From: an uncultured candidate division Zixibacteria bacterium
Lineage (GTDB): Bacteria; Zixibacteria; MSB-5A5; UBA10806; 4484-95
Reading direction: 5' to 3'
Assembly: GCA_963668625.2 (NCBI GenBank)
Contig: CAXXKA010000009.1
Span: 1-64,000 of the forward strand
DNA: 64,000 nucleotides
The position numbers and the translations under genes were made by a program. The notes under the pieces are model-generated. The model searched no databases. It worked only from the letters and a program-made list of their open reading frames with translations, and was not told the origin of the DNA. This document shows positions 41,107-43,104 of the stretch, piece after piece (position 1 is the first letter of the stretch; every line of letters begins with the position of its first letter).

Positions 41107-43104
41107 ATGAAACATACGATAGATAAAGACAGGCGCAAATTCGTAAAGCAAGCCTCGGTCGCGACTTTAGGCGGAGCGCTTACTACCCTGTTCCCTGTTC
41201 TCTCCGGCTGCAGCCTGGAACCGTACGGAACCTACGAGATCGTACAATCGAAATGTATCGGTTGCGGTGAATGCCTGCCGTTTTGCAATCAGGATGCTAT
41301 CGAGCTGCCGCGAAAATCAATCTACACTATCGTATCCGAAAACTGCCGCGAATGCCGTGACTGCGTTCCCACCTGCGATCAAAACGCTATCGAGGTTGCC
41401 GCCGTGTTGTACGGTATCATCCTGCAGGATTGCGTAGAGTGCGGCGACTGCGTAACTATCTGTCCAGATGAGGCTATAGAGATCGCTATCATACGATTCC
41501 TGATCGATCAGGAACTCTGCCGGGATTGCGGACAGTGCGTTCCGGTCTGCCCCGAAAGCGCCATCGAGATATCCGTGGTCAATCATATAATAAACGGCGA
41601 AACCTGCCGGGATTGCGGCCAATGCTTGAACAAGTGCGAGGATGAGGCTATCGATATATCGGTGATCGATCACGAAATCGATACCCAAAACTGCCGGAAC
41701 TGCGGCCAGTGTCTGACACTATGCGAGCAGTCGGCAATAGATATCTCGGTGATAAACCATCGCATAAACACCACCAACTGCAGAAACTGCGGTCAATGTG
41801 ACAGCTTGTGCGAGCAAAACGCCATCGAAATATCGGTTATCGATCATGCTATCGATACCGAAACCTGCCGGGATTGCGGCCAATGCGTACCCCTGTGCGA
41901 GCAGGATGCGTTCGAGATATCGGTGATAGATTACGCCATAATTACCAACTATTGTGTGGGCTGCGGAGACTGTATAGATATATGCCGGCTCGAGGGCAGC
42001 GATTGCATATCCTATATCGGGGGAATCGATTACTATCGCGTATCATCAAACTGCCATTGCAATCCGCGATGGTGCAGGAGCGCCTGTCCCGAGGGCGCTA
42101 TAACGATCGTTAGCGGGCGCGCAGTAATTAACCATGAGCTGTGCACACGATGCGGCGCCTGCGCGGATGCCTGCCCGTATGATTATATCACTCCCTGCCG
42201 GGTTCAATTGGATGAGGATGCTTGCGTACATTGCAGTGGATGTTTCACGGCCTGTGGCGAGGGCGCTGTCAGACGGAATATCCCCTCCGATCATCACGAC
42301 CCGCGTATCAATTCCGAAAGATGTAATAACTGTGGCGATTGTATTACCGAGGAGTTCTGTCAATTCACCGCCATTGAGGAGGTCGTGCCGCAAAACCATC
42401 ACGATCCCGTTATAAACCTGGATTCGTGCAATAATTGCGGCGACTGCCTGACCGAAAGTTTCTGCCAGTATAACGCGATAGAACAGGATATACCATCCAA
42501 CTATCATGACCCGGCTATAGATCATGAGCTATGCAATAATTGCGGCGACTGCCTGACCGAAAGTTTCTGCCAGTACGGCTCTATCGTAACGGATGTCCCG
42601 GATGATTATCATGAGCCCTCGATAAACAGCGAGCTTTGTACCAACTGCAATGATTGCGTACTGGAAAATTATTGCGAATACGGCGCAATCGAAAGAGATG
42701 TCCCCGAGGAATATCACGAACCCGTGATCAACACCGAGCCATGTAACAATTGCGGAATATGCCTGACAGAGAATGCCTGCGAGTACGGCGCTATCGAAAA
42801 GCATTTCCCGGAGGAATATCACGATCCGCGAATTGACACGGACAAATGCAGCTTATGCGGTGATTGTCTCGAGGAATACGAATGCCCTTACGCAGCGATC
42901 GAGAAACAGTTGCCGGAGGATTACGCACCGCCGAGAATCAACAGCCAATCGTGCACCAGTTGCGGCGACTGCTCCGAGTCGTGCCCAGAGGACTATGATG
43001 CTATAGATATCGAACTATTCAAGGCTGAGATAAACACCGATAATTGTACTAAATGCGGCAAATGTGAAACTCATTGTCGTTTCGATGCCATAGTTGAGGA
43101 TTAA
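41107..43104 (+). CDS. Tat-exported lipoprotein polyferredoxin with 20 four-Cys ferredoxin motifs
   Basis: DRRKFVK twin-arginine motif, LSG-C lipobox; 13 Cx2Cx2Cx3C, 6 Cx2Cx2Cx5C and one atypical CxCx4Cx3CP. Confidence 0.9.
   Translation: MKHTIDKDRRKFVKQASVATLGGALTTLFPVLSGCSLEPYGTYEIVQSKCIGCGECLPFCNQDAIELPRKSIYTIVSENCRECRDCVPTCDQNAIEVAAVLYGIILQDCVECGDCVTICPDEAIEIAIIRFLIDQELCRDCGQCVPVCPESAIEISVVNHIINGETCRDCGQCLNKCEDEAIDISVIDHEIDTQNCRNCGQCLTLCEQSAIDISVINHRINTTNCRNCGQCDSLCEQNAIEISVIDHAIDTETCRDCGQCVPLCEQDAFEISVIDYAIITNYCVGCGDCIDICRLEGSDCISYIGGIDYYRVSSNCHCNPRWCRSACPEGAITIVSGRAVINHELCTRCGACADACPYDYITPCRVQLDEDACVHCSGCFTACGEGAVRRNIPSDHHDPRINSERCNNCGDCITEEFCQFTAIEEVVPQNHHDPVINLDSCNNCGDCLTESFCQYNAIEQDIPSNYHDPAIDHELCNNCGDCLTESFCQYGSIVTDVPDDYHEPSINSELCTNCNDCVLENYCEYGAIERDVPEEYHEPVINTEPCNNCGICLTENACEYGAIEKHFPEEYHDPRIDTDKCSLCGDCLEEYECPYAAIEKQLPEDYAPPRINSQSCTSCGDCSESCPEDYDAIDIELFKAEINTDNCTKCGKCETHCRFDAIVED

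Follow-up and report, generated by a model that had tools for sequence, protein, structure and literature searches.

A putatively exported polyferredoxin lipoprotein with a 9+2+9 motif layout from a Zixibacteria genome: a probable single-chain wire of nested ferredoxin domains

The stretch of DNA analysed in this study (hereafter the window) comprises 64,000 nucleotides of contig CAXXKA010000009.1 from an uncultured candidate division Zixibacteria bacterium (assembly GCA_963668625.2). The last gene of a four-gene, same-strand cassette in this window, located at 41107..43104, encodes a polyferredoxin lipoprotein of 665 amino acids (aa), P0001, in which 20 cysteine (Cys) motifs arranged as 9+2+9 were recognised from the open reading frame (ORF), a regular-expression (regex) parse and Pfam matches. 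All features of the polyferredoxin and of the cassette described below lie on the forward strand.

The regex parse identified 19 canonical Cx2Cx2Cx(3 or 5)C motifs and one atypical group, C316-x-C318-x4-C323-x3-C327 (CxCx4Cx3C), which is motif 10 and stands at the centre of the chain; the protein contains 83 Cys in total. According to parse and linker lengths, the N arm (motifs 1-9; 41254..41985) follows a 29-aa period, with the first Cys of its motifs at residues 50, 80, 109, 138, 167, 196, 225, 254 and 283, that is, one step of 30 aa and seven of 29 aa. The C arm (motifs 12-20; 42223..43077), delimited in the same way, follows a 35-aa period, with first Cys at residues 373, 406, 441, 476, 511, 546, 581, 616 and 647 (steps of 33, six times 35, and 31 aa), and includes six Cx2Cx2Cx5C motifs whose first Cys lie at residues 406..581. 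Between the arms, the atypical motif 10 and motif 11, which begin at residues 316 and 346, form a central pair (42052..42174) joined by an 18-aa hairpin-type linker (PEGAITIVSGRAVINHEL); this pair is predicted to be the distal tip, and its equivalent in the model of a relative, described below, superposes on whole clostridial-type ferredoxins. An earlier note, made from the sequence alone, had described this symmetric layout, both periods and the six Cx2Cx2Cx5C motifs, all of which were borne out by the parse.

The N-arm linkers measure 19 aa once and 18 aa seven times, those of the central region 22, 18 and 16 aa, and those of the C arm 22 aa seven times and finally 20 aa. All seven 22-aa C-arm linkers share the pattern P..(Y/H)(H/A)(D/E/P)P.I, in agreement with the number given in the earlier note. 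The seven N-arm-type linkers that it had also counted are reached only with a looser reading: the strict AI(E/D)ISV form follows motifs 4-7 only, AFEISV after motif 8 brings the wider form to five, and the linkers after motifs 2 and 3 are looser relatives of it. Every predicted rung of P0001 would combine one connection of 16-19 aa with one of 20-22 aa, their sum being 38-40 aa. Pfam recognised only Fer4-type domains in the protein (Fer4, E 2e-58; Fer4_7, E 4.6e-52; both over their cut-offs), and the mature chain is strongly acidic (pI 4.17; 117 Asp+Glu versus 34 Lys+Arg). The 9+2+9 layout is not due to chance, since the identical arrangement recurs in homologues of other genomes and the motif Cys of the centre and flanking units are all invariant in a 54-sequence alignment of the family. 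Two extra Cys were observed at residues 300 (GSDCISY) and 364 (ITPCRV), in linkers predicted to lie opposite each other in the innermost rung; each occurs in some homologues only, so a conserved disulfide or an extra ligand formed by them appears unlikely.

The N-terminus of P0001 (41107..41211) carries a twin-arginine translocation (Tat)-type signal (DRRKFVK) followed by a lipobox (LSGC, with Cys35), an assignment based on residue conservation in homologues. R9, R10, F12 and C35 are invariant in all five long forms; in a wider set of 54 family sequences, C35 never varies, with R9, R10 and F12 retained in at least 90%. The same genome encodes TatC (234.6 bits). With the signal read from the conserved Tat motif and lipobox, P0001 is predicted to be an exported, lipid-anchored protein.

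Relatives were collected by several searches. A word-indexed search with P0001 returned P0002 (412 aa) as the single close relative, at 452 bits against 66 bits for the next match, and a genome search added two further long forms, P0016 from the same genus (G001) and P0017 from another genus of the same family (G009). P0001 and the same-genus homologue are 9+2+9, and the form from the other genus is 8+2+8. An exhaustive phmmer search found 18 proteins at E <= 1e-30, and a profile of 3+2+3 forms recovered a clean block of 42 proteins scoring 378-261 bits, followed by a fall to 160 bits, where the first proteins beneath the block are archaeal Eha/Ehb polyferredoxins. The homology search of genome contigs with P0001 gave generic Fer4 matches only. 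Two family members have the source names 'Ignavibacteria bacterium' and 'Bacteroidota bacterium'; the short-form carriers with names thus bear other lineage labels than the host.

Family members were selected by the presence of a Tat motif plus the atypical inner four-Cys group, a filter passed by 59 of 278 stored proteins, three of which (P0069, P0097, P0152) were excluded as non-family by score, leaving 56 members. Arm counts were then taken by regex as the motifs before versus after the atypical central group. Equal arms were found in 53 of the 54 complete members (n=3 in 34 of them, n=4 in 14, n=5 and n=9 in 2 each, and n=8 in 1). P0202, which is also 3+2+3 and misses the Tat regex, stands outside this count. 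The smaller Tat relatives whose centre is canonical include a 2+2+2 form (P0041) and four-motif proteins (P0049, P0056, P0058, P0085). A maximum-likelihood tree built from the central region, with 55 rows, demands six changes of n: the long forms make up one clade (support 100/99) with n = 9, 8, 5 and 9, and one n=5 protein is nested in an n=4 clade. The number of units per arm has thus changed repeatedly, by an equal amount in both arms each time. The co-variation of arm counts (n+2+n) that the earlier note had put forward as a check on its proposal is thus seen across the family, with about six changes of n on the tree.

The structure of P0189, a 3+2+3 relative of 283 aa, was predicted with AlphaFold2 (AF2) from a 49-sequence alignment, yielding a mean predicted local distance difference test score (pLDDT) of 88.4, a predicted template-modelling score (pTM) of 0.74 and 224 residues at pLDDT >=90. 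Its topology was deduced from the aligned ranges of structural matches, without coordinates or a contact map. In a comparison of the model with 474 PDB chains obtained as Foldseek matches, 52-75 residues are aligned across the range 100-104..216-223 in 40 of the 50 rows listed; the ferredoxin of Clostridium acidurici (1fca), for instance, aligns with all its 55 residues at a root-mean-square deviation (rmsd) of 1.6 over 103..218, so that the (beta-alpha-beta)2 fold with its two clusters is recognisable in the model of this relative. Because whole ferredoxins superpose across this range, units 3 and 6 are predicted to form one ferredoxin domain, residues 133-190 being skipped. Eight of the 50 rows align at 128-134..189-196, that is, on units 4 and 5 (1dur, 55 residues, rmsd 1.8), and the remaining two are FwdF at rmsd >10, this protein aligning to the model at rmsd 10.8-12.8 only. 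In a Foldseek-independent comparison with 48,161 chains, seven of the 50 rows listed match the model through 60-68 residues lying within 42/43..283, at rmsd 1.8-2.7, among them 8amp_A (Z 8.1, 60 aligned, rmsd 2.3), 6cfw_N (Z 7.2, 61 aligned, rmsd 1.8) and 1dax_A; since whole ferredoxins superpose over this span as well, units 1 and 8 are also modelled as one domain. Both unit 2 and unit 7 are ordered with high confidence (block pLDDT 94-98) and flanked by paired layers. The lengths of the strands assigned by DSSP (5,2,4,2,4,5,2,3 / 3,2,4,4,2,4,2,5) match in mirror order in 7 of 8 pairs, the exception being 5 versus 4, a near-palindrome of the kind that an antiparallel ladder of N arm and C arm would give. 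The P0189 model thus appears to be nested throughout. No DmsB-type chain was present among the 50 listed rows of either search. In the same 49-sequence alignment, 18 of the top 40 pairs by mutual information link units 1-2 with units 7-8, compared with three between unit 1 and unit 2 and one between unit 7 and unit 8; the cross-arm share of all residue pairs is about 14% (a hand estimate). Given about 46 effective sequences, this cross-arm signal is too noisy to be more than a hint.

Two further lines of evidence come from P0001 itself. When the pairwise identities among repeats are arranged as a matrix for each arm, the N-arm matrix correlates with the mirror image of the C-arm matrix (r = 0.70, a value reached by 35 of 20,000 permutations) and not with its parallel orientation (r = 0.02), owing to a palindromic block layout of the repeats: three divergent outer, five core and one inner repeat, the central two, and then one inner, five core and three outer repeats. 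For the 8+2+8 form, MAFFT assigned the missing unit to N unit 5 in one arm and to C units 16/17 in the other, positions that mirror each other; this result was discarded, the position of a gap among near-identical repeats being arbitrary. A complex prediction of residues 36-100 (motifs 1-2) with residues 603-665 (motifs 19-20) and four 4Fe-4S clusters gave a score of 0.58, the individual runs scoring 0.61, 0.56 and 0.58 and the best of three controls 0.00, with a contact agreement of >=92% between the runs and a partner pLDDT of >=84. In the calibration of this procedure, 58 of 80 solved complexes attained the mark, as did 2 of 110 mismatched pairs; the passes scoring <=0.60 comprise only 7 of the 80 solved complexes and both of these mismatches. 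The job differed from the calibration in having its own alignments and riding ligands: the 54-sequence alignment was used for the N-terminal chain and alignment A1 for the C-terminal chain, since the former, headed by P0001, misplaced the last motifs of short members onto inner C-arm repeats. The prediction thus gives weak support to an association of the two chain ends.

The three genes preceding the polyferredoxin were compared with those of other loci, especially with L021, a locus from an Ignavibacteria metagenome-assembled genome that carries a 3+2+3 form. The first cassette gene (38075..38566) encodes a small exported protein of 163 aa with three Cys, which belongs to no Pfam or NCBIfam family and shares 37% identity (E 2e-28) with the product of the same-position gene of L021. 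The second (38578..39720) encodes a polytopic membrane Fe-S protein of 380 aa with N-terminal acidic DEFEEF-type repeats, assigned as NapH/MauN-like from Pfam and L021 homology: it contains Fer4_5 (PF12801, 44.4 bits, cut-off 22) and a Fer4 dicluster region, is 44% identical (E 5e-113) to its L021 neighbour, and scores 70.9 bits with TIGR02163 napH, under the cut-off of 213. The third (39698..41074), a conserved neighbour, encodes a probable outer-membrane beta-barrel of 458 aa with a signal peptide, an acidic xEF repeat loop and a C-terminus ending in ...RMTF; no Pfam or NCBIfam family matches it, its identity to the L021 homologue is 27% (E 5e-53), and its feature look-alikes in the ESM Atlas include alginate-export (PF13372) clusters at 0.95, a lead only. 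The polyferredoxin gene has the barrel-like gene as its immediate upstream neighbour in each of the five loci examined (the window, L012, L013, L021 and L022). All four cassette genes are present and homologous in L021, and the NapH-like, barrel-like and small-protein genes are conserved beside both long and short polyferredoxin forms. CxxCH heme motifs are absent from the cassette proteins, and no ORF of >=100 aa in the window has two or more of them; nor was a molybdopterin-type catalytic enzyme found among the cassette genes or the eight further window ORFs scanned.

Acidic xEF or DEFEEF-type repeats are common to the NapH-like protein (residues ~45-75) and the loop of the barrel-like protein (~225-260), both here and in L012, L013, L021 and L022. 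Counted by regex, the barrel loop contains 6 and 11 xEF repeats beside the two 9+2+9 rods and two each beside two 3+2+3 rods; beside the 8+2+8 rod about five were seen by eye and one by regex. The comparison covers five loci from few lineages. These repeats could be docking peptides or cation-binding sites.

Taking all these data into account, the best explanation overall, and a probable one, is that P0001 is a Tat-exported, lipid-anchored, single-chain Fe-S wire of ten nested 2x[4Fe-4S] domains; its nested out-and-back topology can be regarded as quite likely. The 20 Cys motifs would make up ten ferredoxin-like domains, each composed of N-arm half-domain i and C-arm half-domain 21-i, and motifs 10-11 would be the sole contiguous ferredoxin domain, at the turn. 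From such nested pairing it would follow that both chain ends lie side by side at the lipid anchor and that the atypical cluster occupies the far tip. The observed motif layout and n+2+n rule, together with the nested model of the relative, would thereby be extended to all ten layers of P0001 and to an elongated shape. The wire would be as long as its count of nested layers dictates, with n ranging from 3 to 9 in full family members, and layers would be gained or lost only as matched N and C pairs. The co-duplication in both arms proposed in the earlier note stands as a pattern, seen in the equal arms and mirrored repeats, and not as a mechanism. Ferredoxin clusters are spaced by about 1-1.2 nm, and with clusters roughly collinear at this spacing the wire would be about 20 nm long.

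As to function, the NapH-like membrane Fe-S protein may exchange electrons with one end of the rod, as NapH does with NapG, and electrons would then cross the periplasm toward the probable outer-membrane barrel protein of the same cassette, which would act as partner at the opposite end, in what would be a heme-free counterpart of multiheme conduits. This trans-periplasmic role, suggested by the conserved cassette, is the weakest part of the reading and must be considered doubtful. A fuller scheme can be drawn, in which a heme-free, all-Fe-S trans-envelope conduit would run from the NapH-like module through the lipid-anchored, ~20-nm, 20-cluster rod to the outer-membrane barrel, the partners docking via their shared acidic xEF repeats, with a repeat number that rises with rod length, matched gain or loss of half-domains setting the length, and Tat exporting the loaded wire; in this complete form it is rather unlikely.

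Several known systems share features with the proposed wire. NapH together with the Tat-dependent, four-cluster NapG is described as a quinol dehydrogenase (PMC5449189), and NapH-like proteins as modular transmembrane electron-transfer parts (PMC8238504). The cassette resembles the former in pairing a NapH-like, polytopic Fe-S membrane protein with an adjacent partner that carries a Tat signal and motifs for [4Fe-4S] clusters throughout (PMC5449189). NapG has four clusters, however, whereas P0001 would have twenty and a lipid anchor. Among the genes of the cassette no nap gene was recognised, and no NapG model appears among the best 25 NCBIfam matches of P0001, P0189, P0049 or P0041. Nested pairing is a feature of four-cluster subunits of the DmsB/NrfC/FdnH/NarH type, in which Cys group I pairs with IV and II with III (1+2+1). 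The same kind of pairing was found in the P0189 model and is proposed for P0001, and four-motif Tat members exist in the family; these subunits, however, have exactly four Cys groups in two nested layers, compared with 20 groups and up to ten layers, and belong to molybdoenzyme complexes, which are absent from this cassette. Porin-cytochrome systems of the MtrCAB type combine an outer-membrane barrel, a lipoprotein and a long redox chain. The likeness is one of working principle only, in that components of these three kinds are likewise co-encoded in this case; the cofactors here would be Fe-S clusters, with no CxxCH in the cassette, and no homology was found.

The best sequence matches of P0001 among solved structures are of the MvhB/FwdF type (9sw6_G, E 1.4e-36; 5t5i_F, E 3.6e-32), with which it would share many fused 2x[4Fe-4S] modules per chain, although it scores far under the curated cut-offs of these proteins (NF045874 VhuB, 88.6 versus 600 bits; NF042909 FwdF, 102.3 versus 375). 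Polyferredoxins have been described with three to seven modules, and those of the MvhB and FwdF/FmdF type are cytoplasmic and have no signal peptide (PMC13580544); in MvhB, an insertion between Fd1 and Fd5 accommodates Fd2 to Fd6, i.e., domains lie within a domain (PMC13580544). Whereas MvhB and FwdF/FmdF are branched or T-shaped and sit on hydrogenase, Hdr or Fwd complexes, P0001 would have ten modules in a fully nested arrangement and be exported and lipidated; unlike MvhB, VhuB and FwdF, it has a Tat motif and a lipobox, and its neighbours are NapH-like and barrel-like. Fe-S nanowires are polymers of small four-cluster subunits, AorA of aldehyde oxidoreductase and HycB3/HycB4 of HDCR, and share with the proposed wire long linear [4Fe-4S] chains and conduction over many nanometres (PMC10413684). 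These are cytoplasmic polymers decorated with enzymes, whereas P0001 would be a single chain outside the cytoplasm.

A number of observations weigh against this interpretation. The AF2 prediction of P0001 itself, from a 5-sequence alignment, was unusable (mean pLDDT 31.9); thus, the evidence for nesting in its ten layers consists of homology, the n+2+n rule and the mirrored repeats, and the pairing of motif i with motif 21-i claimed in the earlier note is backed by the nested P0189 model and the arm rule and not by a model of the protein for which it was made. In the P0189 model, units 2 and 7 are paired by elimination, none of the listed rows covering just these two, and AF2 may be biased to learned nested four-cluster folds; similarly, the score for the association of the chain ends may reflect likeness to solved ferredoxin folds. 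Among the 54 complete members, P0035 (262 aa, from a metagenome) is unequal (3+2+2), lacking the motif that usually comes 27 aa after the central pair, and could be a deletion intermediate, a functional variant or an assembly error. Odd C-terminal tails occur in 2 of 56 members (P0018, with its last motif cut short, and P0037), and among the canonical-centre Tat relatives P0038 (six motifs and a 47-aa tail), P0051 (five motifs) and P0047 seem unequal or truncated. A long polyferredoxin was detected (E <= 1e-30) in only 3 of 285 genomes of the host's class, all of one family, a patchy distribution that is compatible with gene transfer of the cassette. With regard to function, no reductase, cytochrome or known extracellular-electron-transfer gene was found in the cassette, rod lengths that vary between 8 and 20 clusters speak against a ruler of fixed size spanning the periplasm, and ferredoxin-type clusters, which usually have low potentials, fit quinol oxidation poorly.

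Other explanations of the layout were considered. The chain could consist of ten independent tandem ferredoxin domains paired sequentially like beads on a string (1-2, 3-4 ... 19-20), the two repeat types being sub-families. Nearly all members have an even motif total, the 18 aa of the N-arm linkers is the classical length of the hairpin linker within a ferredoxin domain, and a tandem lipoprotein of this kind exists: P0045 (290 aa, from a metagenome, lipoprotein-like) has eight motifs and a G-K-A-x-I-D hairpin signature in every second linker, pointing to a sequential tandem polyferredoxin type. Sequential pairing demands an even total only, yet the arms are equal in all complete members except one. 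Moreover, the central pair and its hairpin-type linker are conserved whether n is odd (3, 5, 9) or even (2, 4, 8), and with odd n sequential pairing would split this conserved pair; the hairpin signature occurs once per family protein, at the centre; and the superposition of units 3+6 and of units 1+8 of the P0189 model on one whole ferredoxin each is at odds with it. Beads on a string are therefore highly improbable. It is also conceivable that the pairing of the short relatives is retained at the centre and at the ends, the long arms of the 9+2+9 form being kinked, coiled, register-shifted or branched, so that the protein is compact or flexible instead of rod-like. No usable model of P0001 speaks otherwise, the two sides of each rung differ by about four residues, which could impose curvature or twist, FwdF superposes so poorly on the P0189 model, and solved polyferredoxins are branched or T-shaped, with the insertion of Fd2 to Fd6 in MvhB as an example (PMC13580544). 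Nevertheless, the equal-arm rule still holds at n = 8 and 9, the outer, core and inner blocks of the arms are mirrored, and the ends of P0001 are predicted, with weak support, to associate, which leaves such a partly nested fold decidedly unlikely.

The topology could also be right and the job another one, P0001 being an enlarged NapG-like periplasmic electron-transfer or storage subunit for a reductase or oxidase encoded elsewhere. This would agree with the NapH-like partner adjoining the polyferredoxin gene, with the service of NapH-like modules to many different extracytosolic oxidoreductases (PMC8238504), with the differing rod lengths among relatives and with the lack of a known outer-surface redox protein in the cassette. 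On the other hand, the barrel-like gene is kept directly upstream in 5/5 loci, the acidic xEF repeats are common to both partner proteins and no enzyme gene is conserved in the cassette, so that the NapG-like role can be entertained only tentatively.

Long-range electron transfer outside the cytoplasm is, to our knowledge, known almost only from multiheme cytochromes, and we know of Fe-S nanowires only as cytoplasmic polymers of small subunits. Nesting of one ferredoxin domain inside another is already known; what is new is a family that, as predicted here, iterates this nesting to ten layers in a single, exported and lipid-anchored chain, with its length set by matched arm counts. If the proposed nested wire is correct, the four-cluster nested fold would have been extended into a length-adjustable module, and the export of a long, cofactor-loaded rod would pose a problem for the Tat system. 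The n+2+n rule offers a natural experiment on the growth of repeat proteins with non-local pairing, and if the cassette is a trans-periplasmic conduit, it would provide anaerobes with a heme-free route for extracellular or outer-membrane electron transfer. P0001 would also be the longest single-chain Fe-S wire described, solved polyferredoxins having three to seven modules (PMC13580544). No published description of a Tat-lipoprotein polyferredoxin, of such a cassette or of multi-layer nested polyferredoxins was found in a search outside of which lay the supplementary list of NapH-like clusters of PMC8238504, which could include the cassette.

Downstream of the polyferredoxin, three further ORFs were read in the window. 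The first, of 141 aa (43338..43763), follows directly and contains hydrophobic segments and an acidic tail (GDDEDDD), and matches no Pfam or NCBIfam family. Judging from the translations, the next ORF (43906..44286; 126 aa) resembles a BlaI-like repressor and adjoins an ORF of 833 aa (44283..46784) that has a HELAH motif and resembles BlaR1/M56 peptidases; the C-terminal half of the latter consists of a long series of ~35-aa repeats (L..ELIK..DHGV...YI).

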